Source: a virus
Virus record (IMG/VR): IMGVR_UViG_3300029882_000069
Length of the DNA: 36,325 bases
Direction: 5' to 3' (one strand)
The position numbers and the translations under genes are program-made. The notes beneath the pieces were generated by a model. It saw only the letters and a program-made list of their open reading frames with translations. It searched no databases and was not told where the DNA came from. Below, piece by piece: positions 4,171-36,325 of the stretch (positions within the stretch are counted from its first letter, which is position 1; each line of letters opens with the position of its first letter).

Positions 4171-4186
4171 TCGTAGTCAACTTTCC

Positions 4187-4210: not shown

Positions 4211-4227
4211 CACTCAGAGGCCACTCC

Positions 4228-4887
4228 ATGGAATTCGCCCAGCACAAAGTCGATATGCCACGAGGCGCTACTGTCGCCATGGCGTCCACTGGCAGCGATC
4301 AGAACCTATATGTCGAATTTTATCTGGCACCGAGTCAATATCCCGACCCGATCCTTTCAGAAGAAGCTGGGTTTCCGATTCACTCCGATGTGCCATGGGT
4401 AAAGATCATGGTTCCAGGTGACCGCACCAAGCAGTGGGATCGTCCGGCCAAGCTGTTTATGGACGGTGATGCTGACACGGTTCCGCCGGACAATGTGCGT
4501 TTCCGTCAGCAGTGGCAGGCATTCCAGGAGAACACTCGGGCTCCAGTCACGGGACTGGCTATCGAGCAGTGGGCAGCTATCACCAAGTCGGAATCGGATG
4601 CGTTCAAGAGCATGCAGATCCACACGGTTGAGCAGCTGGCAGCGCTTCCTGACAGCTCGCTGACATGGCTCGGCGGGAGGCATCGGCGCGACCAGGCCAT
4701 CGCATGGCTCAATAGCGCAAAAGATCACGCGGGCGAGGCCAAATTGGCCAAAGAAAACGAACAGATGCTGGCGCAGATCGATGCCCTGACCATTCAGGTC
4801 AAGGAATTAGCGGCGCTGGCAGGCAAGGACATTGAACCGGCTCAGGCGAAGCGCATGGGACGGCCACCCAAAGTACGGGAGAATTAA
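4228..4887 (+). CDS. hypothetical virion-module protein, 219 aa
   Basis: ORF with an AGAGG RBS, inside the structural block. Confidence 0.6.
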   Translation: MEFAQHKVDMPRGATVAMASTGSDQNLYVEFYLAPSQYPDPILSEEAGFPIHSDVPWVKIMVPGDRTKQWDRPAKLFMDGDADTVPPDNVRFRQQWQAFQENTRAPVTGLAIEQWAAITKSESDAFKSMQIHTVEQLAALPDSSLTWLGGRHRRDQAIAWLNSAKDHAGEAKLAKENEQMLAQIDALTIQVKELAALAGKDIEPAQAKRMGRPPKVREN

Positions 4888-4890
4888 CCC

Positions 4891-5268
4891 ATGTGCGTTC
4901 AGAAGAAACTCAGCGGTTCCGGCTTTGCGCCGTTGCAGGTGACCAATATCATCGGCGACGTTGATCCCGCCGTGACCGCTCTGGGCACGACCGCCGCGAC
5001 GGCTTACCCCATCGGCGCCTGTAACACGCTGGTCACGACCGCCGCCGCTGGTACGGGCGTCATTCTCCCGCCGGGAACCACGGGCGCGCCAAACTTCACG
5101 GGGCTCTTCGATGAATACTGCGTGGCCAATGCAGGCGCGAATGCTGTGCTGATTTACCCACCGACCGGCGGCACGATCAACGGTGCCGCGTCCCTGAGTT
5201 TGGCGGTCGGTGCGCTGGATTACCTGACATGCGTTTCGACCAATGGGCTGACCTGGTTCAGCAAGTAA
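4891..5268 (+). CDS. hypothetical virion-module protein, 125 aa
   Basis: ORF with a GGGAGA RBS. Ala/Thr/Gly-rich. Confidence 0.55.
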   Translation: MCVQKKLSGSGFAPLQVTNIIGDVDPAVTALGTTAATAYPIGACNTLVTTAAAGTGVILPPGTTGAPNFTGLFDEYCVANAGANAVLIYPPTGGTINGAASLSLAVGALDYLTCVSTNGLTWFSK

Positions 5269-5274
5269 TCCGCC

Positions 5275-23825: not shown

Positions 23826-24181
23826 GTTAGGCATTCCGTCTTAGCATCATCGAAAATGTCCTTAGCGAAACTCTTGATAGCCAGTTCGCGCAGCCTCTTG
23901 CCAAGTTCGGCATCATCGCCATTGGCCAGCAGTTCAACAATCTCTCCCTCCTTCAGCGAGTACACGGCATCGACTAGAGCGGTATCCCATCGGTCGGCAT
24001 GGTCCAAGTGCGTTACGGAAAGTCGCTTGCAGCAATCCATTACATCCAAGTCCATTCCCTTCTCGTCGTAAGTTTCCTCATTTACGAGACGATCACATTC
24101 ATCCTCGATCAGCATCGCGATAGCTTCCATCGGCGTGCGATGCCATGGAGAGTGAGGGATTTGTTTTACCCAAGTGTTCAT
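23822..24181 (-). CDS. strongly acidic small protein, 119 aa
   Basis: ORF with ATGA overlaps on both sides. About 27 Asp+Glu versus about 14 Lys+Arg by hand count. Confidence 0.55.
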   Translation of the reverse strand: MNTWVKQIPHSPWHRTPMEAIAMLIEDECDRLVNEETYDEKGMDLDVMDCCKRLSVTHLDHADRWDTALVDAVYSLKEGEIVELLANGDDAELGKRLRELAIKSFAKDIFDDAKTECLT

Positions 24182-25608
24182 GACTCAATCGCCGGATGAT
24201 AGGTCTCTTCGGTCAGACCAAATGTCCAGGCTACCGCTGCATGGGCCTTGGTGAGTTCAGGACTTACGCGAATGCTGTACTCCTTGAACCTTGATCCTTT
24301 TGGAGAGTTCATAGCTGCTTTCGCCGCGTCCCCAAACACTTCTATTGCCTCCTCACGCGTCATCACACCGTCAGGCTCCGGTGTCGAATTAAGGACGCGA
24401 ATCATCACGATAGGTTCGTCATTAGGCACTTCTTTGCGGTACAGAATTCCCGTAGCATCCCTATGAATAATCTCCGATCCGGAATCGAGCATGTAACGAT
24501 TCATGCCGTAACGCTCGATCATTACACGGCGAATTTCGGCATTCGATTCGTTGGCAATCCGTGTGACCGTGATCGATGATCGATCTTCAATAACGTCAGC
24601 AGGCACACGAACCCCGTGAATCGCATGGATGCTCCAACCGTCTGGATATTTCATGGCTGCTTCGCTTTCGTTATGCAGCCGGCCTTGATCGTCGCGATGC
24701 AAGGAGACAGGTCGCTCCGTAAGAATCACCCCGCCAGCAAAAGGCCACCACCATCCGCATTCTGAGAGTAAATCCAAGCCAGCCAACTTGTTGCAAATCT
24801 CCATTCCAAAAACTTGGCCAAAAAATTCGTAAAAAGCCAGCCACGCCGAGTCTTGTTGACCATACCCTGCTTCCCAGACCTGATCCCCGACCTGAGCCCC
24901 GACCTGATCCCCGACCTGAGCCCCGACCTGAGCCCCGACCTGATTCAAGACCTGAGCCCAGACCTGAGCCCAGACCTGATCCCCGACCTGAGCCCAGACC
25001 TGATCCCCGACCTGATTCCTGACCTGATCCCCGACCTGATTCAAGACCTGAGCCCAGACCTGATTCAAGACCTGAGCCCAGACCTGAGCCCAGACCTGAG
25101 CCCCTACCTGAGCCCAGACCTGAGCCCCGACCTGATTCCTGACCTGATCCCAGACCTGATTCCTGACCTGATCCCCGACCTGATTCCTGACCTGATCCCC
25201 GACCTGATTCAAGACCTGAGCCCAGACCTGAGCCCAGACCTGAGCCCCTACCTGAACCCAGACCTGATCCCAGACCTGATCCCAGACCTGATAACTGACC
25301 TGATTCCTGACCTGATCCCCGACCTGATCCCCGACCTGATTCAAGACCTGATTCCTGACCTGATCCCCTGAAATATTAGGAGAATGAGCGAGAAAATGCG
25401 CACCGATAGCTCCGGCAAAGGGAGAACCAAGCCAAATCTTCAGTTTTGGAATGGGAAGACCGGCGCAGCGATAGGCTTCGTCAGCGGCGTGTTCCATGGC
25501 CTCACGATCACATGGCCCTGTAGCCAGACCACGAGCCATCCACTTATCACGGAACTCCGGCAAGCGGCTTACTTGTTCTTTGTTGAGTTTTTCGATGCGC
25601 TTAGCCAT
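24178..25608 (-). CDS. tetrapeptide-repeat protein: N-domain, 41 x (x-x-Q-V), W-rich C-domain; 476 aa
   Basis: Long ORF in the early leftward operon. The repeat keeps perfect register. The flanking non-repetitive domains look like ordinary protein. Confidence 0.8.
24877..25368. repeat. 41 tandem 12-bp units (plus strand GACCTGnnnCCn) inside CDS 24178..25608
   Basis: Read directly. The invariant GACCTG half alternates with about 8 variant 6-mers (atcccc, agcccc, agccca, attcaa, attcct, atccca ...). Confidence 0.95.
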
Positions 25609-25931: not shown

Positions 25932-26068
25932 GCGTCTTCCTCTTTGTTGGTTGAATCGTTGGTTGCCATGCGATCAGCATATCGCTGGCGTGGCTCGTGA
26001 TGCTTGGCGATGGACTGCTCAAGCAGGGATTGGAGTTCGTCTAGCGAAAGGTCATCGTGCATTGTCAT
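25928..26068 (-). CDS. first leftward gene, small acidic protein, 46 aa (below ORF-track cutoff)
   Basis: Hand-translated MTMHDDLSLDELQSLLEQSIAKHHEPRQRYADRMATNDSTNKEEDA*. ATGA overlap with the next gene. Confidence 0.4.
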   Translation of the reverse strand: MTMHDDLSLDELQSLLEQSIAKHHEPRQRYADRMATNDSTNKEEDA

Positions 26069-26091
26069 CCCCGTGGTTCGTCTTGAGGCAC

Positions 26092-26120
26092 ATTGGAACA
26101 CGTCTTTTTTCTAGTGTCAA
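26092..26120 (-). promoter_or_regulatory. candidate leftward early promoter (TTGACA-17-TCCAAT on the minus strand)
   Basis: -35 at 26120..26115 and -10 at 26097..26092, read directly. It heads the minus-strand operon. Confidence 0.5.
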
Positions 26121-26126
26121 TAGTGT
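26112..26126. promoter_or_regulatory. direct repeat TAGTGT-N3-TAGTGT between the divergent -35 boxes (candidate operator)
   Basis: TAGTGTcaaTAGTGT, read directly. It overlaps the leftward -35 and abuts the rightward -35. Confidence 0.35.
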
Positions 26127-26128
26127 AC

Positions 26129-26157
26129 TTGCTAAATGTTGTCCGATGTGATGAAAT
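26129..26157 (+). promoter_or_regulatory. candidate rightward early promoter (TTGCTA-17-TGAAAT with a TG extended -10)
   Basis: Read directly, 28 nt upstream of the Cro-like gene. Confidence 0.45.
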
Positions 26158-26184
26158 GGTCTCGAACTCTAGCAGGAAGAACCC

Positions 26185-26379
26185 ATGATCACGCCGCAAG
26201 ACGCAATTAACGCACTGATGAGCAACGGATGGACGCAGCACGCGATAGCTAACAAGGTAGGGTGCACGCAGGTAACCGTTAGCGCCATCGGAAGGGGAAG
26301 TGAGCCAAAGTACGCCCTTGGCGTCAAGATCATGGCGCTGGGCCACAGATTCGGCAAGAAAGGAGCGAAGAAGCCATGA
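26185..26379 (+). CDS. Cro-like helix-turn-helix regulator, 64 aa
   Basis: AGGAAG RBS. GWTQHAIANKVGCTQVTVSAI is a typical HTH. It is the first gene of the rightward operon, opposite the divergent promoter. Confidence 0.6.
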   Translation: MITPQDAINALMSNGWTQHAIANKVGCTQVTVSAIGRGSEPKYALGVKIMALGHRFGKKGAKKP

Positions 26380-26813
26380 AAGATGAGATCAAACAAAGAT
26401 TGTTCGACTCGGTAACGCGTGCATCAGCATGGTCTCCGCTTGGCTATGCGACCAAGACCGGTCCGACCATCCGCATTACGCAGCGGTCCGGAGACGTTAA
26501 CCAAGGAAAGCAGCTAGCTCTGGAGGGTATCGAACGATCCTCAAAACGTCAGCGCGCCATAGACCCGTTTTGGTCGGAGCTGGCGTACAAGTACCTACTG
26601 GCATACGCGGCTGAACATTTTTCGTGCTTTTCCGTGGAGCTAGTCAAGGCCCACGCCTACGCTCACGGCCTCAAAGAACCTTACAACGGATCAGCTTGGG
26701 GCCAAATCGTGCGCCGCGCCATCCGCGAAGATCGCATCGTTTACGCTGGACTTGAGCCTTCGATCAATGGATCGCGGCACACGGCACCCGTTCGTCTTTG
26801 GCGGAGAAAGTGA
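26376..26813 (+). CDS. hypothetical protein, 145 aa
   Basis: AAGGAG RBS and ATGA overlap. Confidence 0.6.
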   Translation: MKDEIKQRLFDSVTRASAWSPLGYATKTGPTIRITQRSGDVNQGKQLALEGIERSSKRQRAIDPFWSELAYKYLLAYAAEHFSCFSVELVKAHAYAHGLKEPYNGSAWGQIVRRAIREDRIVYAGLEPSINGSRHTAPVRLWRRK

Positions 26814-26814
26814 C

Positions 26815-26964
26815 ATGAATTGGGAGATTGAGGACTGCCTTATCCGCCTAGAGAATCAGATGTATGAATGTGGTGGCGATAGAGCAGCCAGTAAAGACAG
26901 GTATTCCATCGAAGAGTACATCCGCGATCTTGAGCTTCAAATACGAAAACTGGAGCGTTCCTAA
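26815..26964 (+). CDS. small hypothetical protein, 49 aa
   Basis: Internal ATG of ORF 26752..26964, directly after the upstream stop. Confidence 0.4.
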   Translation: MNWEIEDCLIRLENQMYECGGDRAASKDRYSIEEYIRDLELQIRKLERS

Positions 26965-27167
26965 TGACCATCTTCCGAGCCCTATGGCAATCTTCCCTAG
27001 TCCTAGCCGGCTACGCCATCCTGATCCTTCTATGCATCTACGTAGACATGCCGCACGTCATGGCGATGACCTTGGCGCTTGTCGTTGGCTTCGTCGCTGC
27101 GATCCTGCTTAGCTTCATCTGGGACGACTTCGCGTGCGCTAGGGAAGCGATGGAGGATGAGGAATGA
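26964..27167 (+). CDS. small membrane protein, 67 aa, two TM segments
   Basis: TAATG overlap. Hydrophobic stretches LVLAGYAILILLCIYV and LALVVGFVAAILLSFIW. Confidence 0.5.
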   Translation: MTIFRALWQSSLVLAGYAILILLCIYVDMPHVMAMTLALVVGFVAAILLSFIWDDFACAREAMEDEE

Positions 27168-27436
27168 AAGACCCCAATAAGCCAAAGGCATCCCCGATAG
27201 TGAGTCTTGATCTAGGCGCCTACAAACTCAGCAAGAAGCATCAGTCTCAGCTTGAGGCATTCGATAAGATGGACGCGTACATGAAGTTGGCCGGAAAACA
27301 CGCGCCATGCCTTCGACTCAAGCGCGTGGACTACGCGGATATCAATGCGGCTATCAAATCTCAATCCAACGGTGAACGTGAATTGTCGAATCTTCGGTAT
27401 CGCGGCGTTCCTGTTATCAGCGAAGCTCGGTCATGA
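27164..27436 (+). CDS. hypothetical protein, 90 aa
   Basis: GGAGGA RBS and ATGA overlap. Confidence 0.5.
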   Translation: MKDPNKPKASPIVSLDLGAYKLSKKHQSQLEAFDKMDAYMKLAGKHAPCLRLKRVDYADINAAIKSQSNGERELSNLRYRGVPVISEARS

Positions 27437-27861
27437 CGATCCGCACCCACTTCCTACCCAAAGACGATCCTAAGAAGGCCGAATCCGTCATGCACCTCGT
27501 GATCGAGGAAGTCGCGGCCATGGTCCGGTCCAACAGGAAAATTCGGATCCGCGTGGACGAGTCAGTAAGTAAGCGCTCACTTGAGCAAAACGACATGCTT
27601 CATGCCATCTGCGGGGAGATATCCAAGCAGCGGCAGTGGGCCGGCAAGGAACGTGACGTGGAGGCATGGAAACGTCTGCTGGTGGACGCGTGGAGCCGCA
27701 CAGAAGGTGGCGCACAGTGCGAGGTCGTGCCTAGCCTAGATGGATCGTCTGTGGTGATGCTTGGCATACAGACCCGGAACATGAAAGTGGGACAGATGGC
27801 CGATCTGATTACGTTTGCCCACGCCTGGTGCTGGGAAAATGATGTGGAGTTGATCCAATGA
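27433..27861 (+). CDS. ninB: NinB-family recombination protein, 142 aa
   Basis: ...KRSLEQNDMLHAICGEISKQRQWAGKERDVEAWKRLL...VVPSLDGSSVVMLGIQTRNMKVGQMADLI... aligns by eye to lambda NinB (RSLDQN..LWA.LGD.S.Q..W.G...ESWK...VVPNL.G..V..G.ST..M.V.EFAEL). Confidence 0.8.
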   Translation: MTIRTHFLPKDDPKKAESVMHLVIEEVAAMVRSNRKIRIRVDESVSKRSLEQNDMLHAICGEISKQRQWAGKERDVEAWKRLLVDAWSRTEGGAQCEVVPSLDGSSVVMLGIQTRNMKVGQMADLITFAHAWCWENDVELIQ

Positions 27862-28136
27862 GTAGTGCCCTGGAACGCCAATGGTTCGCTGCCGTGGCTT
27901 CGCTGGAATCCTGTGTTCTTTGTCATTCCTATGGAGTCCAGGTAGCTCACCGTAACGAGGGGCGAGGCTTGGGGCAAAAGTCTAAACCGTGGAACACTGC
28001 TGCGCTCTGCCCAACGTGTCATCACGAGCTCGATAACGGCAAGCATCTTGATCAAGCTCAGCGACGATCCGCCATGGATCGAGCCATTGTCGAAACCCAC
28101 AACAAGCTGATGGAACTGAACAGGTGGCCTAAGTGA
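27858..28136 (+). CDS. YbcO/DUF1364-like putative nuclease, 92 aa
   Basis: CVLCH..GVQVAHRNEGRGLGQKSKP....ALCPTCHHELD resembles the Cys/His pattern of DLP12 YbcO, recalled from memory. It sits between ninB and rusA as in lambdoid nin regions. Confidence 0.5.
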   Translation: MSSALERQWFAAVASLESCVLCHSYGVQVAHRNEGRGLGQKSKPWNTAALCPTCHHELDNGKHLDQAQRRSAMDRAIVETHNKLMELNRWPK

Positions 28137-28230
28137 AACTTTTCCCTCTAGCCCTAATTATCCTGTGCCTGTATTACGACATGTGGCTTCCAGCCCTTCT
28201 CGTTCTGGCTTCAGAAAGGATGCTGACGAA

Positions 28231-28443
28231 ATGAGACCCGACCCCGTCTGGAAGCGCATCCTGAAGGCGCTGGAACTTGGGCCGATGACGAGGCATCAGC
28301 TTTGCCTGTGCCTGAGCATGAGTCTGAGCTCGATTGAGGCAGCGTTAGGCTGGCTGGCTGCGCGTGGCGCGATTCTGGTCGTCGGAAAGCTCAAGAAGAA
28401 CAGGCAGGGTCATCCACTGTGGATCTATGGGCTGGTGCTATGA
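28231..28443 (+). CDS. small winged-helix-like DNA-binding protein, 70 aa (start uncertain; the ORF is open from GTG 28165)
   Basis: WKRILKALELGPMTRHQLCLCLSMSLSSIEAALGWLAARGAI is a wHTH-type pattern. Confidence 0.45.
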   Translation: MRPDPVWKRILKALELGPMTRHQLCLCLSMSLSSIEAALGWLAARGAILVVGKLKKNRQGHPLWIYGLVL

Positions 28444-28465
28444 ACATTGCCACGAGGATGACTAT

Positions 28466-28831
28466 ATGAAGGAGCTTATCCTTCCCTGGCCTGATACGGA
28501 TTTACACCCTAATCGACGTGTCCATTGGGCTCACAAGGCTAAAGCCGCAAAATCTGCCAGATTGACCGGCTTCGTCTTGGCTAGAGATGCTGGGTGGAAT
28601 GGCTCAAATCTTCCAGAAGGCCCCCTTCACCTTTGGATAGACGGATATCCTAGGGATAAGCGTCGGCGTGACGCAGACGGCCTTCTAAGCAGCCTTAAAT
28701 CAGCCTTAGACGGTATTGCCGATGCACTCGGCATCGATGACCGTCGATTCGTGCCTCACCCTTGGGTGAAAGACGAGGTGCGAAAGAATGGTGAGGTTAG
28801 GATTCGCCTTACTTCATGTCCGACACCATGA
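28466..28831 (+). CDS. rusA: RusA-family Holliday junction resolvase, 121 aa
   Basis: LPWPD...PN.R.HW... and PRDKRRRDADGLLSSLKSALDGIADALGIDD align by eye to E. coli RusA (LPWPPS..., [23 protein letters not shown]..DD). Confidence 0.8.
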   Translation: MKELILPWPDTDLHPNRRVHWAHKAKAAKSARLTGFVLARDAGWNGSNLPEGPLHLWIDGYPRDKRRRDADGLLSSLKSALDGIADALGIDDRRFVPHPWVKDEVRKNGEVRIRLTSCPTP

Positions 28832-29025
28832 CCGCACCTGAAGGCTGGCGCACTGGCCACCCCAAAGAACACGCCAAAGTCCTGGCGATCGATCCGTTCT
28901 ACTGGACTTTCCTGCTTGCCACATGGAACGGCTATCGCTGGTACGTCAACAGTCGCCCGGTCGATGATGACTGGATCGCGATGTGGAGGCCACTTCCGAA
29001 GCTTCCCGAAAGAACGTCAGATTAG
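28816..29025 (+). CDS. hypothetical protein, 69 aa (alternative ATG 28828 in ATGA overlap with the rusA stop)
   Basis: ORF. W-rich. Confidence 0.45.
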   Translation: MSDTMTAPEGWRTGHPKEHAKVLAIDPFYWTFLLATWNGYRWYVNSRPVDDDWIAMWRPLPKLPERTSD

Positions 29026-29035
29026 TTCAAGAAAA

Positions 29036-29073
29036 GTGTTGACAGTCAATTTGGATTGATTTAAAGTCAACAC
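29036..29073 (+). promoter_or_regulatory. near-consensus promoter TTGACA-17-TAAAGT enclosed by an 8-bp inverted repeat GTGTTGAC...GTCAACAC
   Basis: -35 at 29039..29044 and -10 at 29062..29067. IR arms at 29036..29043 and 29066..29073, with inner GTCAAT/ATTGAT. It lies in a 68-nt gap, followed by an AGGAG RBS. Confidence 0.6.
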
Positions 29074-29093
29074 ACATTCAACAGGAGACGGAC

Positions 29094-29342
29094 ATGGTGG
29101 ATCATGATGGCTTCAAACGTGGCGGAACATTCAACTGCTCAACATGCAATCGTCTGACACGCAAGACGGCTTATACCGCTGGCCAGTGCTGTCCTGAGTG
29201 TGACGAGGCGGCGATGATCGAGAACGGAATCAGTGATGAGGGTTTGACTGGCTTGGACTTGGCGAAAGCTGAAGCGAAGATTGCCGAACTCAATCGGATA
29301 GCCGTAAAGAAGGGTGGCATCATCGCAGGAGTGGCCGCATGA
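29094..29342 (+). CDS. zinc-ribbon protein, 82 aa
   Basis: CSTC...CCPEC four-Cys pattern. AGGAG RBS. Confidence 0.55.
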   Translation: MVDHDGFKRGGTFNCSTCNRLTRKTAYTAGQCCPECDEAAMIENGISDEGLTGLDLAKAEAKIAELNRIAVKKGGIIAGVAA

Positions 29343-29554
29343 GCGCGAGCTACGTCATAGAGGTCAGCATCACGCCGCTCTGCACATCGTGCGGCAAAGA
29401 ACTGCAAATCGGCATGGCAGAGTCGCGCCCTACTGGACATACATTTGAACGTGACTGTCCTGAGGAGCGCACACATCAGCGAGTGTTCGTCTATGCGTGC
29501 GCTGATTGTTTTGTGTTCAAGAGCGATCTGGCAGCAAAGGTAGATGAAGCATGA
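29339..29554 (+). CDS. zinc-ribbon protein, 71 aa
   Basis: CTSC...CADC. ATGA overlap. Confidence 0.5.
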   Translation: MSASYVIEVSITPLCTSCGKELQIGMAESRPTGHTFERDCPEERTHQRVFVYACADCFVFKSDLAAKVDEA

Positions 29555-29733
29555 CCGACCGCGCAAAGCTCTCCGAATACCAGCTACGCAGCCGAGCCAA
29601 GCGCCTAGCATCCGGCTCCAAGTTCATGAACGTCTGGATCAACAAGGAGAACGTGAGCAAGCTTGAAAAGCTGCGTGCGATCCGTGGCGTGACGCTGCAA
29701 TCACTGTTTAACGAGGCGATAGAGAAGCTGTGA
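29551..29733 (+). CDS. ribbon-helix-helix-like small DNA-binding protein, 60 aa
   Basis: KFMNVWINKENVSKLEKLRAIRGVTLQSLFNEAIEKL fits a strand-helix-helix layout. ATGA overlap. Confidence 0.4.
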   Translation: MTDRAKLSEYQLRSRAKRLASGSKFMNVWINKENVSKLEKLRAIRGVTLQSLFNEAIEKL

Positions 29734-29888
29734 GCGAACATGATGATAAGGAAGCACGTATGATAGAGAAGATCAGGCGCCTTGCGCTCACTTGGCGAAG
29801 GCATGCAACGAGTGGAGCAAGCAGAGAGCCACGAATCCTTGATGACTGTGCTCAGGATGTCTTGGACATTTTGGAGGAGTTGAAATGA
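29730..29888 (+). CDS. small hypothetical protein, 52 aa (GTG start; below ORF-track cutoff)
   Basis: Hand-translated VSEHDDKEARMIEKIRRLALTWRRH...LEELK*. GTGA overlap upstream and ATGA overlap downstream. Confidence 0.35.
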   Translation: MSEHDDKEARMIEKIRRLALTWRRHATSGASREPRILDDCAQDVLDILEELK

Positions 29889-30094
29889 AAAGTAACGAAC
29901 CAGCGTTTCCAGTTCAAGACGCTGCAAGTTGGCAAGCGCATGGCATGACGTTGCGCGACTACTTCGCAGCAAAAGCGCTGCACGCCCTGATCATACGTGG
30001 CGATGATCCAAGCTCCAACGATCCGAGGGACACGTTTTCAGAATGTGCATACAAGTTCGCCGATGCGATGATTCTTGAGCGGTCCAAGCCCTAA
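29885..30094 (+). CDS. hypothetical protein, 69 aa, last gene of the rightward early operon
   Basis: ORF, followed by a hairpin. Confidence 0.5.
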   Translation: MKSNEPAFPVQDAASWQAHGMTLRDYFAAKALHALIIRGDDPSSNDPRDTFSECAYKFADAMILERSKP

Positions 30095-30101
30095 ACGAAA
30101 A

Positions 30102-30120
30102 AGCCTCCACGAAGGAGGCT
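30102..30120 (+). terminator. hairpin terminator candidate
   Basis: AGCCTCC-acgaa-GGAGGCT, 7 nt after the stop codon. The downstream T-tract is weak (ctgaaggtcttgtt). Confidence 0.45.
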
Positions 30121-30140
30121 CTGAAGGTCTTGTTCGTATA

Positions 30141-30166
30141 GGAATAATTCCTAGGAAAAATTCCTA
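30141..30166. promoter_or_regulatory. four alternating GGAA/TTCC half-sites forming overlapping palindromes in an AT-rich patch
   Basis: GGAATAATTCCTAGGAAAAATTCCTA, read directly. It contains GGAAT-A-ATTCC, TTCCTAGGAA and TAGGAA-AAA-TTCCTA. Confidence 0.4.
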
Positions 30167-30167
30167 C

Positions 30168-30196
30168 TTGATGTGAAGACCGTGTAAGAGTACAAA
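30168..30196 (+). promoter_or_regulatory. candidate promoter P1 (TTGATG-17-TACAAA)
   Basis: Read directly. It has the same GTACAAA -10 context as P2. Confidence 0.35.
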
Positions 30197-30199
30197 AGA

Positions 30200-30654
30200 A
30201 AACGGCAGCGCCCCGCCAAAGGCCTGCCGTGTCAGCTATGTCAGGTAGCTGGATGAAGTTGCACCATTGCGGTGCAAACCAATCCTAACGCACCAATAAG
30301 GTGCAAAGCAACTGCCTGATTCAGCTGGCCGTCAGGGCCACGATAGGTTGTTGCCGGGTTCCATCGGTGAAGCTCAGAAAAGTGAACCGAGAGTGGAAGC
30401 GAGTTTCCATACCCCTCACTGACAAGCCGGGGGTCGTTAAGGCAGTAGAAGCCGAACACGCGAATCAGACAGCGCATTAAGCACCAAGGCGGCTGGCCCA
30501 CGTTACGGGTAGTCTGATGAAGACCGTCATCTACCACTCAACCTAGCTTTGATATGCGGCTAGGGTTCCTCTAGGGGGAGTGCAAAGCGTTCGGCTTGTC
30601 CAATGGCTTTAGGAAAGTTCTCAGACAAACAGCAAGCGGAGATAAATTTCCCTA
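30200..30654 (+). ncRNA. candidate structured non-coding RNA / long regulatory leader (no credible ORF)
   Basis: There is no plus-strand ORF of 60 aa or more. The hairpins are ACGGCAG/CTGCCGT (30202..30230), CAGCTA/TAGCTG (30232..30251), TTGCACC-attgc-GGTGCAA (30259..30277), a sister hairpin GCACC-aataa-GGTGC (30290..30304), TGGCC/GGCCA (30326..30340) and ATCAGAC/GTCTGAT (30464..30518). The strand is inferred only from P1 and the flanking genes. Confidence 0.3.
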
Positions 30655-30683
30655 TTGAAAAGCCCGAAGATAGCGCGTACAAA
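30655..30683 (+). promoter_or_regulatory. candidate promoter P2 (TTGAAA-17-TACAAA), possible late-operon promoter
   Basis: Read directly, about 80 nt upstream of small ORF 30765. Confidence 0.4.
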
Positions 30684-30764
30684 TCACCCATGGCGTCAGA
30701 CCTTTTCCGCGTGAGTGTCTGTGTGAGAGTCCAGACAAGCCCGTTGTGAAGCGATCTGGCGGAC

Positions 30765-30905
30765 ATGGTGAAAATGCACTCCCCTAGCGTTGATAGACAC
30801 CATGAGGCTGACGCCATGCTTATTCGCCACCGCATGACCATCGGGTACCTTCGCTGGAAGTGGCTCTGCCTAAAGGTTGATTTGATTCACTGGCTGAAGC
30901 GGTGA
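30765..30905 (+). CDS. possible small basic W-rich protein, 46 aa (below ORF-track cutoff)
   Basis: Hand-translated MVKMHSPSVDRHHEADAMLIRHRMTIGYLRWKWLCLKVDLIHWLKR*. Its TGA forms a GTGA overlap with the GTG start of the next gene. The RBS is weak (GGCGGA). Confidence 0.3.
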   Translation: MVKMHSPSVDRHHEADAMLIRHRMTIGYLRWKWLCLKVDLIHWLKR

Positions 30906-31105
30906 AGACGTTGATAGACCCACGCAAAGAAGGCTTGCGCGCCTACCAGAACGGCTTGCCGCGCAGCATGTGCCCCTACGGTATTCTTGCGATGCACAGC
31001 GAGCTCCACAGCGTCACTCAGTGGCACAGGGGTTGGGTGGAGGCTTTCTGTCAAGCGAAGAAGCTTGATCCCCAGTTGACGCTTGCGGACGAGCCTGACG
31101 CTTGA
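30902..31105 (+). CDS. ribosome modulation factor (Rmf)-like small protein, 67 aa, GTG start
   Basis: ...LRAYQNGLPRSMCPYG......VTQWHRGWVEAF... shares AYQxG / MCPY / QWxxGWxEA, in the same order, with E. coli RMF (recalled: ...RGYQAGIAGRSKEMCPYQTLNQRSQWLGGWREA...). Confidence 0.6.
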   Translation: MKTLIDPRKEGLRAYQNGLPRSMCPYGILAMHSELHSVTQWHRGWVEAFCQAKKLDPQLTLADEPDA

Positions 31106-31116
31106 TACATTGAGGC

Positions 31117-31401
31117 ATGATGGAGGACCGTATGGCCGAGCTGAAATCCAAGGCACGAAACGCGCTACCGGCATCAACGTTTGGGCTGCCTGGGAAACGA
31201 GCGTACCCCATGCCTGACCGAAGCCACGCCGCCAACGCCAAGGCGCGTGCTTCACAGATGGCGAGCGCTGGCAAGATTTCTACCTCAGCCAAATCTCAGA
31301 TCGACGCCAAGGCAAACAAGATCCTCCAGAGCGGCGCGTACCCTCCCAAGTCCAACACGCCCACCAGCGGCGGCTACAAAGGAGCTTCCCGTGGCAAATA
31401 A
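31117..31401 (+). CDS. small basic protein, 94 aa, C-terminal ...TPTSGGYKGASRGK
   Basis: TGAGG RBS. The ALPASTFGLPGKRAYPMPDRSHAANAKARA motif is one I recall from uncharacterised phage proteins. Confidence 0.55.
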   Translation: MMEDRMAELKSKARNALPASTFGLPGKRAYPMPDRSHAANAKARASQMASAGKISTSAKSQIDAKANKILQSGAYPPKSNTPTSGGYKGASRGK

Positions 31402-31576
31402 GAAGGCACCTAGCGAAGGCGCGACCAAGCCAGATGGTAGCCGCTCGCCCTACGAGAATTCCCCGTTGCAGAACAAGGTCCATAGCTACCCGAAGGGCGA
31501 TGTCATGCCTGGTCGCGGTGGTTATCCGCCTAGCGGCAACCCGAAATCCGGTGGTTACAAGGATTGTCCGAAATGA
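31391..31576 (+). CDS. small basic protein, 61 aa (GTG start), C-terminal ...NPKSGGYKDCPK
   Basis: In-frame GTG of ORF 31181..31576 preceded by GGAG. It shares the P-x-S-GGYK tail with the upstream protein. Confidence 0.4.
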   Translation: MANKKAPSEGATKPDGSRSPYENSPLQNKVHSYPKGDVMPGRGGYPPSGNPKSGGYKDCPK

Positions 31577-31752
31577 GCGATAAAAGCTTCGTTGACCAGG
31601 TAGAAGGCGCGATCCGATCGTTTGAAAGTTCGCTGCAGTCAATCGAGGGCTATAGGAAGTACGCTCCACAGGTGTGGAATACCGTACTCCAAAGAGCCAA
31701 GTGGCACCTGAAACTCCCCACCATCACACAGGAAGCATCTCATGAAGGGTGA
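31573..31752 (+). CDS. hypothetical protein, 59 aa
   Basis: ATG in an ATGA overlap. The ORF-track start 31564 is a TTG. Confidence 0.45.
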   Translation: MSDKSFVDQVEGAIRSFESSLQSIEGYRKYAPQVWNTVLQRAKWHLKLPTITQEASHEG

Positions 31753-31900
31753 TATGAAAGAACGCGGCAAGAGTTCCGACCACATCGCGCCGCGCACGCC
31801 AAAGTCCCCGGCGCCGAGCTCCAAAGGGGGCGCCAAGCAGCCACAGGGTTCCGGAAACTGGGATGTCGAGCGCAGTCCATACGGGAAGAAGCTGAAGTGA
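31742..31900 (+). CDS. small basic protein, 52 aa (below ORF-track cutoff)
   Basis: Hand-translated MKGDMKERGKSSDHIAPRTPKSPAPSSKGGAKQPQGSGNWDVERSPYGKKLK*. GTGA overlap with the next gene. Confidence 0.4.
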   Translation: MKGDMKERGKSSDHIAPRTPKSPAPSSKGGAKQPQGSGNWDVERSPYGKKLK

Positions 31901-32082
31901 CGCTTTCTGAAAGCGAACTAGGACGAATGGGCATCTGGGATAAGGTGCTGACTGCCGGACTCAACACCGGCAAGGACATCGATACCGCCATCGAGCATGC
32001 CGAAAAGGCTGTTCGGGCGTTCGAAGCTCGTTTTCACAAGACCGTCGAGTCCGTCAATGGCACTGACCTCCCAACCGCCTAA
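31897..32082 (+). CDS. hypothetical protein, 61 aa (GTG start)
   Basis: ORF with GTGA coupling. Confidence 0.45.
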   Translation: MTLSESELGRMGIWDKVLTAGLNTGKDIDTAIEHAEKAVRAFEARFHKTVESVNGTDLPTA

Positions 32083-32248
32083 TGCCCCTGGATGGTATTG
32101 GGTGGCTAACTACGCTGCCCCGACGCCTACCATCGTCTACGTGACTACGCAGGGATTTGGTGCCGCCACTCTCACGCCGGCCCTCGTCGTGCAGAATTGG
32201 TCACTAGATGGCACCGAGACGTGGGAAGGGCCGATTCAACCGACCTAG
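32057..32248 (+). CDS. hypothetical protein, 63 aa
   Basis: Internal ATG of ORF 31997..32248. Confidence 0.4.
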   Translation: MALTSQPPNAPGWYWVANYAAPTPTIVYVTTQGFGAATLTPALVVQNWSLDGTETWEGPIQPT

Positions 32249-32257
32249 GCTAGCGCG

Positions 32258-32521
32258 ATGATATGGTTCCGTCGAAACCGCATACAAATCCTTATTGAGC
32301 GCATTGACGCTCTGGAGAAACACCTTATGACCGCCTCTACCGATCTCACCACCAATGTGCAGAACGCTGTTACAGCTATCAACTCGGCTATCGTGGTGAT
32401 CCAAGCTTCGACAGGTAACGATCCGGCCGTCGTGGCTGCCAACGCGGCGCTGGTGACAGCTACGACCGCACTGACCAGCGCGCTGGCAGCCGTCCCGAGT
32501 AGCGCTCCAGCCGCTTCCTGA
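32258..32521 (+). CDS. hypothetical Ala/Thr-rich helical protein, 87 aa
   Basis: ORF. Confidence 0.5.
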   Translation: MIWFRRNRIQILIERIDALEKHLMTASTDLTTNVQNAVTAINSAIVVIQASTGNDPAVVAANAALVTATTALTSALAAVPSSAPAAS

Positions 32522-32656
32522 ACAACCAGGACTAGCCGGGAGTGTCCGCGCCTCAGCGAAATAACACCGGCAGCCAAGGCCTTAGTTAGCCGTGTTACGG
32601 CGGTACTTCCTACCGATCTCGCTCGGGTGACTTGGTAATCGTTTGATGTACTATCT

Positions 32657-32683
32657 AGTTCACATGAACTCACAAAAGTGAAC
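32657..32683. promoter_or_regulatory. palindromes just upstream of terS (AGTTCA-ca-TGAACT; alternative GTTCAC-N14-GTGAAC)
   Basis: Read directly. The second pairing ends 4 nt before the terS ATG. Confidence 0.35.
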
Positions 32684-32687
32684 GACC

Positions 32688-32957
32688 ATGGCAGCACGCA
32701 CAAGGCGTATTACCCAGAACGAAAAGATACGCGAGAAGATTCAGGCAGGTATGCTCATCAAGGGCCTGCATGACCATTTCGAGGGTAAGCGAGAGCTATC
32801 AGCCACCCAACTTAAGTCTGCTGAAATTTTGTTAAGGAAATCAGTACCGGACTTGAGCGCTGTTGAGATGACTTCTGACGTTAACTTGAAGGGTGAGGTT
32901 GCAATTAGGCCGGTGCTCACTCGCGAAGAGTGGCTCAAGCTGCACAAGGCGAAGTAA
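32688..32957 (+). CDS. putative terminase small subunit, 89 aa
   Basis: Immediately upstream of TerL. ...ATQLKSAEILLRKSVPDLSAVE... resembles short TerS proteins, as recalled. Confidence 0.55.
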   Translation: MAARTRRITQNEKIREKIQAGMLIKGLHDHFEGKRELSATQLKSAEILLRKSVPDLSAVEMTSDVNLKGEVAIRPVLTREEWLKLHKAK

Positions 32958-32959
32958 GC

Positions 32960-34432
32960 ATGTGGTATCCGCAGCCGGGTCATCAGCTCGCCGCCTTTGA
33001 GGCCGACTGGTGCGAAGATCTCTTCTACGGCGGTGAGCGCGGGGGCGGTAAGTCGGACTTCCAGTTGGGTTGGCAAGAGGATGGCGCCCTGCGCTACGGT
33101 CAGGCCCATCGCGGCATCCTATTCCGCAAGACCTATGCTGAGCTGGAGGAGCTTCAATCCCGCGCCATGGAGATATTTCCGGGCGAGGGCGCGATCTACA
33201 AGACGCAGCCTAGCGCCGACTATCCGTTCTCCAACAGCTGGTACTGGCCCAACGGCGCGAGTACCAAGATGCGCTTCATCGAGGCTGAGAAGGATTACGG
33301 GCGATATCACGGACACTCGTATACCCGCATTGGGTTCGACGAGGTCACGGAATACGCCACACAAGCGCCGCTGATCAAGATGTACTCCACGCTGCGCAGC
33401 CCTTTCGGCGTGCCTTGCAGCGTTCGATCCACAGGAAACCCAGGCGGTGCCGGTCATATCTGGGTCAAGAGTCGCTACATCGACCGTGCGCCACCCATGA
33501 CACCTTACCTTGATGTCGATGACGGCATGACGCGGATGTTTGTGCCTAGCGCGCTGGCCGATAACGTGATCCTGGTCAAGCAGGATCCTAAGTACAGAAG
33601 CCGTATCATCGCGGCGACCAATGGCAATGAAGCCTTGCGCAAGGCATGGCTAGAGGGGGATTGGAACATAGTTGCCGGCGCGTTCTTCGATTGCTGGAAT
33701 AGTAAACTGCATGTGGTAAAGCCGTTTAGTATTCCTGATGAATGGGGGCGCATACGCTCAGGGGACTGGGGTAGCGCTAGACCATTCAGCTTTGGATGGT
33801 GGGCAGTTGCTACTGACCCCTACACGCTGGAATCTGGTTTGGTCATTCCTCGTGGCGCGATGGTTCGTTACCGTGAGTGGTACGGCTGCAAAGACCCTAT
33901 CAACGAGCCCAACGTGGGCCTGAAGCTCACGGCCGAGGATGTTGGTGCCTATATCCTAGAGCTTGAAAAGAATGATCCTAAGATCAACGATGCGGTACTC
34001 GATCCTGCCGCCTTCACTCAAGACGGGGGGCCCAGCATTGTGGAACGCATTGTGAAGGGTGCGCGGAGCCAGATATGGTTTAGGCGCGCCGATAACAAAC
34101 GCGTTGCCAAGGCTGGCGCTATGGGTGGCTGGGACCAGGTGCGAGCAAGAATGCTGGGCGACAGCGATGGGCCTGCGATCTACTGCTTTGATACGTGCAC
34201 GGATTCCATACGCACGATCCCCTTGCTTCAGCACGACAAGCTGAAGCTTGAGGACATCGATACGGAGATGGAAGATCACGCCGCTGACGAATGGCGCTAC
34301 GCTTGCATGTCCCGACCCTATGTGAGAAAGTCTGCCGAAGAGTCAAAGCCACGTTTTCTGCATGAAATGACTGCAAATGACGTATTTTGGCCGAAGAAAC
34401 AGTCCAACAAGCTTCAAAACGACAGGATTTGA
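32960..34432 (+). CDS. terL: terminase large subunit, 490 aa
   Basis: Walker A-like GGERGGGKSD near the N-terminus, a Walker B-like IGFDEV, and a C-terminal acidic nuclease-type region. Followed by the portal gene. Confidence 0.9.
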   Translation: MWYPQPGHQLAAFEADWCEDLFYGGERGGGKSDFQLGWQEDGALRYGQAHRGILFRKTYAELEELQSRAMEIFPGEGAIYKTQPSADYPFSNSWYWPNGASTKMRFIEAEKDYGRYHGHSYTRIGFDEVTEYATQAPLIKMYSTLRSPFGVPCSVRSTGNPGGAGHIWVKSRYIDRAPPMTPYLDVDDGMTRMFVPSALADNVILVKQDPKYRSRIIAATNGNEALRKAWLEGDWNIVAGAFFDCWNSKLHVVKPFSIPDEWGRIRSGDWGSARPFSFGWWAVATDPYTLESGLVIPRGAMVRYREWYGCKDPINEPNVGLKLTAEDVGAYILELEKNDPKINDAVLDPAAFTQDGGPSIVERIVKGARSQIWFRRADNKRVAKAGAMGGWDQVRARMLGDSDGPAIYCFDTCTDSIRTIPLLQHDKLKLEDIDTEMEDHAADEWRYACMSRPYVRKSAEESKPRFLHEMTANDVFWPKKQSNKLQNDRI

Positions 34433-34435
34433 CCG

Positions 34436-34771
34436 ATGAATGTTCAGCCGTTCACCCCCTTGGTCGGCCAGACGCAGGCAATCCTTGCGACAGCGACTTC
34501 CCAGTTCATCATGCTTACCGCTGGCGGCGCGGCGGTCAACTGCATCCTTGTGTTCAATGGCACGACGACGCCAATTGCTGTACGCACTGGTTTAGCAATT
34601 GCCGGCGCAGTGGTGGCCGTGGCTCCAGTCGTTGGAACGCCCGGGGATATGGTTATCGCGCCTGGCGCCTATAAAGTGATCAGCAAGGGATATAACGATA
34701 CAGTTGCTGTGGTTACCGCTATTACCGCCGGAACTGGCGATGTCTATATCACGCCAGGAGAAGGCCAATGA
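34436..34771 (+). CDS. hypothetical Ala/Val/Thr/Gly-rich protein, 111 aa
   Basis: ORF between terL and portal. Confidence 0.5.
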   Translation: MNVQPFTPLVGQTQAILATATSQFIMLTAGGAAVNCILVFNGTTTPIAVRTGLAIAGAVVAVAPVVGTPGDMVIAPGAYKVISKGYNDTVAVVTAITAGTGDVYITPGEGQ

Positions 34772-34902
34772 GCATCGATACCATTCTGCTGATCCTAGCC
34801 GCTGTCTGCTTTGGTGTAGCTGCTTGCGGGTTCCCTTCACGCATCAACCTGATCGCGCTGGGCCTGCTGTTCTGGGTCATTACACTGATCCACCATGGCT
34901 GA
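34768..34902 (+). CDS. small membrane protein, 44 aa (below ORF-track cutoff)
   Basis: Hand-translated MSIDTILLILAAVCFGVAACGFPSRINLIALGLLFWVITLIHHG*. ATGA overlap upstream, and it overlaps the portal start by 8 nt. Confidence 0.4.
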   Translation: MSIDTILLILAAVCFGVAACGFPSRINLIALGLLFWVITLIHHG

Positions 34903-36325
34903 GTGGTCTGGCAGCGCACCGGAAGTGATTGAGGGAGAACCTGTCACCTCAAACGATGATGTGCGCAAGTACGTTGTGGAAATTGAGGTTTACGACCGCA
35001 CATCGCAGAAATTCCGCACGCGAGGCAACAAGATACTTCGTCGCTACCGTGACGAGCGCCGGCAGGCCGACGAAGATCAGATCAAGTACAACATCCTATG
35101 GAGCAACATTCAGACGTTGCTCCCGGCCTGCTACGCGAAGAATCCCAAACCCGAGTGCGAGCGGCGTTTTAAGGACGACGATCCGGTCGGGCGCGTGGGC
35201 TCGGAGATTTTGGAGCGGTCGATCACTTATTACATGGATTGTGGAGACTTCTTCGACTCCGCCCGGTCGGCGACGCTGGATCGTCTCCTCCCAGGTCGCG
35301 GTCAAATGTGGGTGCGCTACGTGCCTCATTTCCGTGATGTCGACAACGATTCGGACGACGCAGGAACGCCAGAAGTAAAGCAGGAAGGCCCTGAAGTCAC
35401 CGATAGCTCTGACGAGATGGTGGAGCGCGATGCTTCCATGATCGGTTCGGACCCCTCCGATGTAGAGGATGGGCAGGAAGTCGAATATGAGGAAGTGTGC
35501 TGCGATTACGTGCACTGGGAGAACTTCGGGCACAATGTGGCGAGGACGTGGGACGAGGTTTACCTCGTCTGGCGCATGGTGTTCCTTGACCGTGATGAGC
35601 TCATCGAGCGATTTGGCGCCGACTTGGGCAAGCGCATCCCACTGGACTACTCGCCGAAGAATCTCGCGGAAGAGAAGATCACGCAGGAAATGAAAAAGGC
35701 GACTGTCTACGAAATGTGGGACAAGCGTTGCAAGAAAGCCTTTTGGGTGAGCAAGAAAGTTCCGGAATTCCTGGATGAGCGAGATGATCCGCTGAAACTG
35801 GAGAAGTTCTTCCCATGCCCGAAACCTCTGCTGGCCACGGTAGCTAACGATTCGATCCTGCCCACAGCGGATTACAGCGAATACCAAGATCAGGCACGGG
35901 AGCTAGACGCTCTCACGGCGCGTATCGCGGCGGTCACACGTGCGCTGAAGGTGGCCGGCGTGTACGCCGCAGACGCTACGGGCATCGACCGGCTTCTGTC
36001 GGAGGGAACCGAAAATCAACTGATCCCCATCGAGCAATGGGCGATGTTCGCGGAGAAGGGTGGCCTTAAGGGCGTCTTTGAGCTATTCCCCATTCAGGAT
36101 ATCGCCCAGACGCTTCTGGCCATGTATCAGGCTAGGGACAAGATCAAGGCGGACCTTTACGAAGTGTCTGGCATGCCAGATATCATCCGGGGCGCCAACG
36201 ATCCGCGTTCTACCGCCACTGCCGAAAGCATCAAGGGGCAATATGCCTCGATCCGCTTGCGATCAGTTCAGGACGAAGTGCAGCGATTCATGCGCGATAT
36301 GATTCGCCTGATGGGTGAGGTCATC
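34895..36325 (+). CDS. portal protein, N-terminal part (continues at base 128 after collapsing the terminal duplication)
   Basis: I translated the whole frame by hand and found no stop to the window end. It was absent from the ORF track only because it has no in-window stop. ...KYNILWSNIQTLLPACYAKNPKP... and the acidic insert are typical portal-like features. It follows terL. Confidence 0.8.
   Translation, partial: MAEWSGSAPEVIEGEPVTSNDDVRKYVVEIEVYDRTSQKFRTRGNKILRRYRDERRQADEDQIKYNILWSNIQTLLPACYAKNPKPECERRFKDDDPVGRVGSEILERSITYYMDCGDFFDSARSATLDRLLPGRGQMWVRYVPHFRDVDNDSDDAGTPEVKQEGPEVTDSSDEMVERDASMIGSDPSDVEDGQEVEYEEVCCDYVHWENFGHNVARTWDEVYLVWRMVFLDRDELIERFGADLGKRIPLDYSPKNLAEEKITQEMKKATVYEMWDKRCKKAFWVSKKVPEFLDERDDPLKLEKFFPCPKPLLATVANDSILPTADYSEYQDQARELDALTARIAAVTRALKVAGVYAADATGIDRLLSEGTENQLIPIEQWAMFAEKGGLKGVFELFPIQDIAQTLLAMYQARDKIKADLYEVSGMPDIIRGANDPRSTATAESIKGQYASIRLRSVQDEVQRFMRDMIRLMGEVI
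36199..36325. repeat. terminal duplication, copy 2 (identical to 1..127)
   Basis: Read directly. Confidence 0.95.

Follow-up and report, generated by a model that had tools for sequence, protein, structure and literature searches.

The question raised by the IMG/VR virus record IMGVR_UViG_3300029882_000069 is what occupies a gap of about 800 nucleotides (nt), at positions 30095–30901, between its early-right and late genes. The window, by which we mean the whole 36,325-nt stretch analysed here (contig ENA ERZ27248691 k141_1555573), is a near-complete phage genome of ~36 kb. A long block of late genes on the plus strand wraps round the window ends, and is followed by an early-left block on the minus strand, with RecT, an HNH endonuclease and a DUF6745 protein, and then by an early-right block on the plus strand, with NinB, an HNH endonuclease and RusA. 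The gap lies between the last early-right gene (29885–30094) and the first late genes, and is probably the late-control region of a lambdoid-type phage, which carries RecT, NinB and RusA. In lambdoid phages, Q and PR' occupy the equivalent position. An earlier inspection of the DNA alone (the original prediction) had recorded the absence of any plus-strand open reading frame (ORF) of at least 60 amino acids (aa) in the gap, with which the list of ORFs agrees, and had proposed a structured non-coding RNA or long leader gating late transcription. We find in the gap two tandem promoter-like sequences of one type (promoters P1 and P2) and, directly after the second, a 130-nt leader with five helices. 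This leader appears to be a new structured-RNA family with six members, absent from Rfam, at the late-control point of Q-less lambdoid-type phages. The reading that we favour, with a probability of roughly one half, is that it acts in cis to gate the translation and stability of the first late cistron.

The comparison set consists of five related metagenomic phage contigs (L001, L177, L240, L399 and L405). The nearest relative, L001 (IMGVR_UViG_3300047494_000031), has a TerL ~80% identical to that of the window. BLASTN and nhmmer searches of the gap against the fetched loci gave no match, even in L001, and the homology was recognised first by eye and later by covariance models. In L001, both promoters were visible by eye, together with a hairpin after promoter P1 bearing a compensatory change and a long-range inverted repeat after promoter P2. 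The other members were reached through TerL (L177), the protein resembling ribosome modulation factor (RMF) that is encoded behind the leader (L240), a DNA pattern for one leader hairpin, P4 (L405), and a profile of the RMF-like proteins run against 5.8 billion proteins (L399).

The leader contains two branch points. Its closing helix, P1, comprises 9–14 base pairs (bp) across the members; helix P2 encloses hairpins P3 and P4, and hairpin P5 stands separately. The P4 loops are of the GNRA type in all six leaders (GUGA in the window, elsewhere GCAAG or GCAAU), and nowhere else in the leader is the sequence itself so well conserved as in P4 (CGYUGUGAAGCG or GUUGCAA(G/U)AAC). The P5 loop is large and pyrimidine- or C-rich, reading CUCCCCU, CUCCUUUCUC or AUCCUCCC. 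When folded singly, each leader sequence adopts the same closed multi-branch shape, and the plus strand of the window at 30684–30830 has a folding z-score of −3.09 against shuffled sequences.

The helices are preserved by base-pair exchange. In a hand alignment of four members, 151 of the 152 cells are standard, 27 of the 42 pairs are changed on both sides and 9 cells are G·U. A covariance model built from L177 and L240 only matched the window at 30680–30831 (31.5 bits, E = 4e-7), and a model built without L001 matched L001 (26.5 bits, E = 5e-6). L399 and L405, which were found independently and entered no model build, then matched the model with 80 and 93 bits, respectively; no other match at E ≤ 0.9 was present in ~3.2 Mb of fetched phage loci. 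Since MAFFT set the helices of the leaders and of the P1 domain out of register, the pairs were counted by script and model-fitted alignments were used. The original prediction had proposed collecting the intergenic regions of relatives and testing them for covariation, and the outcome favours structure: across the six members, 90.4% of the cells are paired, as compared to 29–43% when the partners are slid by 1–3 columns, and 23 of the 41 pairs are changed on both sides, as compared to 1–5 when slid, with the observed values reached by none of 500 shuffles, although these numbers are strong rather than final, because a model-fitted alignment leans towards structure and the six members represent about three lineages. 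RNAalifold independently predicts the same five helices. The G·U pairs would be A·C mismatches on the other strand, which argues that the leader is an RNA structure of the plus strand. The search of Rfam 15 with Infernal, also suggested originally, returned no family at gathering scores in the whole window.

Both promoters had been pointed out in the original prediction, and they are the only two of their type: the pattern TTGAnn-N16-18-TACAAA occurs twice in the 36-kb window, where 0.05 matches are expected, and none of 100 shuffles reached two. Promoter P1 has counterparts in L001 (TTGACG-18-TACAAA, 3686–3715) and L405 (TTGCAG-17-TAAAAA, 2023–2051), and promoter P2 is kept in L001, L177, L240, L399 (TAGAAA) and L405 (TAAAAA). 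In these nine copies from six phages the hexamers are conserved, and the spacers differ freely. The −10 hexamer is TAnAAA in all nine (TACAAA, TAAAAA or TAGAAA), and the usual final T is absent. This form suggests that the promoters depend on an activator, or that the sigma specificity of the host is non-standard.

The position of the leader relative to promoter P2 is equally constant. In all six members, the helix starts 6–8 nt past the −10 hexamer, which is the expected start position and places the 5' end of the RNA inside helix P1. In the window, L177, L240 and L399, the first downstream ORF has its AUG within the 3' arm of helix P1, and in the window the Shine-Dalgarno sequence GAGG (30804–30807) is also paired. 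Over the start region (−15 to +4), the computed probability of being unpaired averages 0.07–0.31 in the six leaders, as compared to 0.41 ± 0.11 for the starts of 38 other genes in the window, and the value for the leader of the window, 0.105, is below all 38 controls. In these computed folds, the start site of the first late cistron is sequestered by the leader.

The first cistron itself is a small ORF, so that the original judgement that the gap holds no credible ORF was mistaken at this size. The ORF encodes a basic, Arg/Trp-rich peptide of 29 aa with an N-terminal Arg-rich stretch and an aromatic residue at positions 14–20, and homologues of 33–35 aa are found in L177, L240, L399 and L001. 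L177 and L240 differ by six synonymous codons and one non-synonymous, conservative codon. Within the first 20 codons, L177 and L399 differ by one Met-to-Ile change and eight synonymous changes, including switches of codon family from AGC to TCA (Ser) and from AGG to CGA (Arg). Judged from these codon differences, the ORF is under purifying selection in the relatives. A frame-shifting 1-nt indel upstream in L240 indicates that the short form is the real one, and the JGI annotation independently calls the 29-aa gene, with a one-residue difference, on 17 contigs. A type I toxin-antitoxin of the hok/sok kind was considered and rejected: the peptides of 29–35 aa are basic and have no hydrophobic span.

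The stop codon TGA of the small ORF overlaps the GTG start of the second late cistron (GTGA, 30902–30905), and this overlap points to translational coupling of the two. The second cistron encodes the RMF-like protein, which matches PF04957 with 26.1 bits (E = 9e-6; gathering cut-off 27.9). The source databases assign PF04957 to this gene, and RMF chains in the PDB match the protein at E = 0.0024. RMF-like homologues adjoin the leader in L001, L177, L240 and L399, so that five of the six leaders precede both the peptide and the RMF-like gene. The subfamily is rare, with four clusters among the 5.8 billion proteins, all of them adjoining the leader RNA.

The sixth leader, that of L405, stands before other genes. 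Positions 1–8029 of L405 are a mosaic relative of the window, with an identity of 92% over NinB-HNH (27433–28339), 85% over 30173–30311 and 92% over the leader (30675–30816). After the leader, the first gene of L405 is an unrelated acidic ORF of 58 aa; there is neither the 29-aa peptide nor an RMF-like gene, and the late genes are unrelated. Retention of the leader at 92% before unrelated genes ties it to the promoter and its position and not to a given protein, and this speaks for a general function where the late transcript begins.

These features can be joined in a model, in which each of two tandem promoters of one unusual type (TTGAnn-N17-TAnAAA) would start a transcript that enters a conserved RNA fold with its first nucleotides. 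Promoter P2 and the leader would form the core element. In its closing helix, the first nucleotides of the RNA are paired with both the Shine-Dalgarno sequence and the start codon (AUG, 30816) of the first late cistron; the folded leader, as we infer, would keep ribosomes off the start site and shield the 5' end against degradation. The first late genes could then be expressed only once the helix has opened, whether by co-transcriptional ribosome loading, by RNase III-type processing or by a factor, and a candidate factor would recognise the GNRA-type P4 hairpin or the C-rich P5 loop. In the window, these genes encode the Arg/Trp-rich peptide and the coupled RMF-like protein. Promoter P1 would probably be controlled by a phage-specific DNA-binding protein at the palindromes upstream of it, and its transcript would comprise a three-hairpin domain and a decayed 5' untranslated region (UTR) before running on into promoter P2.

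Besides the small number of lineages, several observations weigh against this gating of translation and stability. In L001 and L405, the AUG lies 6–7 nt outside helix P1, and the first cistron lacks a conserved Shine-Dalgarno sequence: that of the window is clear, those of L177 and L001 are weak. A sigma-70 scan calls neither promoter P1 nor promoter P2, and the start sites and promoter activity themselves are inferred from sequence. Occlusion alone would not call for a fold as elaborate as this one, with five helices and a conserved hairpin of the GNRA type. Lastly, a terminator inside the late operon (4187–4204) and the absence of a Q protein leave room for a role in transcription.

Comparison with known systems places the leader among those that sequester a translation start, as far as the folding models allow, and makes it a member of none of the systems compared. 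The lambda N leader (PL, nutL, an RNase III-sensitive hairpin, then N) likewise has a long-range hairpin over the ribosome-binding site of the first cistron, a small Arg-rich first cistron and a GNRA-like hairpin. However, that leader stands at the early boundary and ours at the late one, no boxA-like element was identified here, and the two have no sequence homology. N has 107 aa, as compared to 29–35 aa for the peptide, and L405 keeps the RNA without the peptide; a boxB-like hairpin together with a downstream Arg-rich N was accordingly not found as a constant pair, P4 being present in six of six leaders. The leader of the MS2 maturation (A-protein) gene is also multi-branched, and its 5' end pairs with the first ribosome-binding site, which is the arrangement seen here. 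The A-protein is translated only from unfolded or nascent RNA. MS2 is an RNA phage genome, whereas ours is the mRNA of a DNA phage; the two are not homologous, and kinetic control is known for the MS2 side only. By analogy, the closest functional counterparts of the element would be the leaders of lambda N and of the MS2 A-protein gene, and it sits where lambda has PR'/qut.

The late switch of Q-less temperate phages is largely unknown beyond a few models, and the leader provides a defined, portable element of ~130 nt at this point. Should it do no more than gate translation, it would offer a clean instance, in a phage, of pairing between the 5' end of a leader and the ribosome-binding site. 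Its covariance model can be used on large collections to find further members. The locus also illustrates that 'empty' phage gaps can hide selected micro-ORFs, here a 29-aa peptide coupled to a rare phage homologue of RMF. The coordinates of the features are collected in Table 1.

Table 1. Features of the gap and of its flanks, in window coordinates unless another contig is named
Feature	Position	Strand	Basis or remark
Terminator-like hairpin, 9-bp stem, 5 G-C pairs	30100–30122	−	T-run 30092–30099
Two 13-nt tandem palindromes GGAA-N3-TTCC, TAGGAATAATTCC and TAGGAAAAATTCC	30139–30166 (palindromes 30139–30164)	strandless	abut the −35 of promoter P1
Predicted promoter P1, TTGATG-N17-TACAAA	30168–30196	+	sequence
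P1 5' domain, three hairpins	30202–30285	+	fold and hand alignment
Hairpin H1	30202–30230	+	P1 5' domain
Hairpin H2	30234–30250	+	P1 5' domain
Hairpin H3	30251–30285	+	P1 5' domain
Sister hairpin H4, GCACC-AAUAA-GGUGC	30290–30304	+	inside block 85% identical to L405
Remainder of P1 transcript, poorly conserved	30305–30654	+	short colinear motifs only
ORF A	L001 4086–4226; L405 2442–2600		absent from the window
Predicted promoter P2, TTGAAA-N17-TACAAA	30655–30683	+	sequence
Late leader RNA, 130 nt, five helices	30689–30818	+	covariance model, covariation
Closing helix P1 of the leader	30689–30699 with 30808–30818	+	extended by P1b
Small ORF, 29 aa, MLIRHRMTIGYLRWKWLCLKVDLIHWLKR	30816–30905	+	homologues, codon differences
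RMF-like gene, 67 aa, second late cistron	30902–31105	+	PF04957, RMF in PDB
PHROG 16160 gene	31117–31401	+	late block
TerL	32930–34432	+	late block

Upstream of promoter P2 lies the P1 unit (30168–30654). Its promoter is shared with L405 and with L001, which represents an independent lineage. L177, L240 and L399 have no such unit at all, which makes it accessory. The idea of the P1 unit as a duplicate of the leader was rejected, as the leader model gives a single match in the window. The transcript of promoter P1 would begin with the three-hairpin 5' domain, which has the same topology in the window, L001 and L405, with folding z-scores of −4.74 in the window (30199–30310) and −4.51 in L001. 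In a hand alignment of the three phages, all 77 cells are standard, 15 of the 26 pairs are changed on both sides, and there are no G·U cells. The twin hairpins GCACC-N5-GGTGC of the original prediction are present, starting at 30261 and 30290; the second, H4, is absent from L001. The density of hairpins remarked upon there is also reflected in plus-strand folding beyond chance, both in the two covarying domains and over 30200–30654, where z is −2.67 on the plus strand and −1.29 on the minus strand. At the end of the unit, 30540–30660 folds no better than shuffles (z = +0.17).

Beyond 30311, conservation fades: at 30312–30654, neither DNA nor six-frame similarity to L001 or L405 extends past short colinear motifs, and no frame is conserved. 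Between the P1 domain and promoter P2, L001 and L405 carry a conserved small acidic ORF of 46–52 aa with a strong Shine-Dalgarno sequence (ORF A), of which the window retains GGAGATA at 30640–30646 only. The stretch 30305–30654 therefore looks like a 5' UTR whose gene has been lost, and it was probably the 5' UTR of ORF A. In the 5' UTR of L001 (3976–4057), CCAATGGGGCTTAG is present as three direct repeats spaced by 30 and 38 nt; its counterpart in the window is a single copy, CCAATGGCTTTAG, at ~30601. Ten nt near the end of the P1 unit (30575–30584) are perfectly complementary to the P5 loop of the leader (30775–30784; GGGGAGTGCA / TGCACTCCCC). No equivalent pairing was seen in L001 or L405, and the complementarity may be due to chance. 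A 10-nt direct repeat reported originally, TGAAGACCGT, does occur twice, at about the chance level estimated for 800 nt; L001 has not conserved it, and of the two copies the first alone falls inside the block common with L405.

The absence of G·U cells raises the possibility that the P1 5' domain (30197–30311) serves mainly as a minus-strand small RNA gene, or as a sense/antisense pair. A countertranscript of ~80 nt would start at ~30277 from TTGCTT-18-TAGGAT (30311–30282), fold the complements of H3 and H2, end at the complement of H1 followed by UUUUCUUUU, and anneal to the beginning of the P1 transcript, in the manner of lambda oop with cII and P22 sar with ant. A terminator scan reads H1 with TTTTCTTTT on the minus strand as an intrinsic terminator, and the run behind it, a conserved TTTTCTTT(T), is kept in three phages (TTTTCTTTTGTA, TTTTCTTTGTAC and TTTTCTTTTTTA). 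The contrast of 0 G·U in 77 cells with 9 in 152 for the leader is what a structure maintained on both strands would show. Conservation with L405 stops precisely where the candidate −35 has its outer edge, at 30311, and L001 has TTGACA-18-GAAGAT at the equivalent place by eye. A second terminator of minus orientation lies just beyond, at 30100–30122. On the other hand, the candidate minus-strand promoters, located just upstream of H3 in both lineages, are weak, matching at 7/12 and 9/12 positions, and come from visual inspection. For the P1 unit as a whole, the plus strand gives the more stable fold (−164.7 versus −158.5 kcal/mol in the window, −151.6 versus −125.8 in L001), and plus-strand promoter P1 is kept in L001, an independent lineage, and is needed for expression of ORF A in L001 and L405. 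The likeness to oop and sar is that of a hairpin countertranscript ending in a terminator and overlapping the 5' part of a regulated transcript, although the minus-strand RNA is here read only from the terminator signature and the absent G·U pairs. We regard a predominantly antisense function as a tentative proposal, with a minority share of our belief. The domain is possibly a sense/antisense pair, and such a pair would be compatible with gating of translation by the leader and would not replace it.

The regulation of late transcription in the original prediction took the form of RNA-mediated antitermination. The structure, strand and position of the predicted RNA have held, in the form of two covarying domains after conserved promoters, of which antitermination would be one possible function. 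A decoy or anti-defence RNA, another idea put forward there, drew evidence neither for nor against it. In such a scheme, the leader, the P1 5' domain or both would bind polymerase in cis in the manner of put RNA, and the late operon of ~25 kb would be read through in place of Q action. The gap directly follows the NinB-RusA region, as Q/PR'/qut do in lambdoid phages, and the fold lies at the extreme 5' end of the transcript. No Q-like protein was recognised with Pfam and PHROGs among the 13 early-right ORFs scanned (26376–30094), in agreement with the original observation, although a very divergent Q is possible. Moreover, in L405 the leader travels with its promoter and not with the downstream genes. 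Between two late genes of the window, a strong plus-strand intrinsic terminator, GGGGCTCTTCGGAGCCCC followed by TATTTTC, is present at 4187–4204, and late transcription must read through it.

A further contig, L163, whose TerL is 77% identical to that of the window, has at 4380–4545 a promoter TTGACG-16-TATGCT, a 75-nt leader and an intrinsic terminator (4461–4500). This junction has a layout like that of lambda PR'/tR', and includes neither the leader RNA nor an RMF-like gene, suggesting that the two arrangements are alternative solutions to one task.

The lambda PR'-qut-6S RNA-tR' region shares with our locus its place after NinB-RusA and before the packaging genes, as well as the order of a late promoter and a non-coding leader. 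Lambda, however, has Q and a promoter-proximal terminator, neither of which was found here, and our leader is far more structured. No plus-strand terminator-like site was detected in the window at 29500–31500 or in L001 at 3000–5400, so that no promoter-proximal terminator follows either promoter in these two phages. The putL and putR sites of HK022 resemble our element in that a cis-acting RNA structure stands just downstream of a phage promoter with no corresponding protein antiterminator. They consist of two stem-loops in ~70 nt and belong to early operons, whereas our leader has five helices in 130 nt, belongs to the late operon and overlaps a start codon; two adjacent stem-loops of the put type were seen neither in the leader nor in the three-hairpin P1 5' domain. 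Antitermination would also give no reason why the closing helix consistently overlaps the first cistron at its start. We therefore regard put-like antitermination as rather unlikely. The wider analogy, in which this group replaced Q by RNA, with the 5' folds of both transcripts driving read-through of the late operon in cis and the leader also timing translation of the first cistron, is likewise doubtful. Were the RNA to act on polymerase, it would widen a very small set of RNA antiterminators, providing a second, unrelated phage family and the first at a late operon. A search on put RNA and phage RMF in the library of papers available gave nothing directly relevant.

Autoregulation, with the leader as an operator RNA for its own products, seems improbable. 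The peptide would bind P4, as lambda N binds boxB, or the RMF-like protein would bind the C-rich P5 loop. The strong sequence conservation of P4, the Arg-rich N-terminus and aromatic residue of the peptide, the resemblance of the P5 loop to the anti-Shine-Dalgarno end of 16S rRNA, and the presence of both genes behind five of the six leaders are consistent with this idea. However, the leader of L405 is 92% identical, P4 included, with neither gene downstream, and the mosaic structure of that contig thus argues against an operator specific for the peptide or the RMF-like protein. In addition, a peptide of 29–35 aa has nothing like the parts of N that bind NusA and polymerase.

We consider a DNA element, either a replication origin, as put forward in the original prediction, or a packaging (cos/pac) site, very improbable. 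It would be formed by the palindromes, an AT-rich patch (GC 0.46 at 30000–30199) and inverted repeats, upstream of the terminase genes. The window ORFs scanned include no recognised replication initiator, helicase or integrase, which leaves the origin unplaced. The GGAA/TTCC half-sites noted originally do exist, as two tandem palindromes, and look like sites for a dimeric DNA-binding regulator. They are not conserved, and unrelated repeats replace them in relatives: the same spot holds AGTTTCAaaTGAAACT, with one 7-bp palindrome, in L405, and TACACAA repeats in L001. That each phage has a repeat of its own upstream of the −35, after differing preceding genes, suggests that phage-specific regulators act upstream of promoter P1. 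Furthermore, the P1 unit is missing altogether from the phages of the L177 type (L177, L240 and L399), the window contains no iteron array and shows no skew inflection at this place, and in the leader it is base-pairing, not sequence, that is conserved, with G·U pairs that indicate plus-strand RNA.

That the minus-strand ORFs 30241–30537 and 30560–30841 are real genes is hardly credible, and the original prediction rightly dismissed them: an automatic gene caller does report a 68-aa ORF (30560–30766) on the contig, but the ORFs have no Pfam or PHROG match above noise, no frame is conserved with L001, indels between relatives are not multiples of three, and the stretch is taken by a plus-strand promoter, a plus-strand RNA structure and a selected plus-strand ORF.

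The hairpin that opens the gap, placed directly after the stop codon of the last early-right gene, had been described as a terminator. The hairpin exists, and its polarity is the reverse of that expected for termination of the early-right transcript. On the minus strand, the stem is followed by TTTTTCGTTT (overall AGAGCCTCC..GGAGGCTTTTTCGTTT), whereas on the plus strand CTGAAGG follows the stem and there is no T-run, so that the hairpin faces minus-strand transcription. At E ≤ 10, Rfam gave three weak matches only in 29900–31100, far below threshold (asX2, 26/70 bits; Phe_leader, 25/55; Yfr1, 16/38), two of them on this hairpin.

Wider searches returned no additional members. DNA similarity to 50,697 deposited phage genomes gave no match, either for the gap in distant mode or for 26000–36325 in near mode. 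The neighbouring 94-aa and 69-aa proteins returned 160 loci, with the element in L001 only. TerL scans of genome and metagenome collections added none, the best genome match being a Dyella marensis prophage (72%). The RMF-like protein as the sole query returned only itself, and all copies of its contig are identical in the gap. An alignment scan of viral contigs with the small ORF gave the known members only, and a DNA pattern for the start of P1 gave chance matches only. ARAGORN detected no tRNA or tmRNA in the window.

Two further features lie outside the gap. Inside the early-right operon, between the genes at 28816–29025 and 29094–29342, there is a near-consensus sigma-70 promoter sequence, TTGACA-17-TAAAGT (29039–29067). 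In the early-left block, the minus-strand ORF at 24178–25608 encodes the protein of 476 aa with the DUF6745 domain (E = 4e-63).

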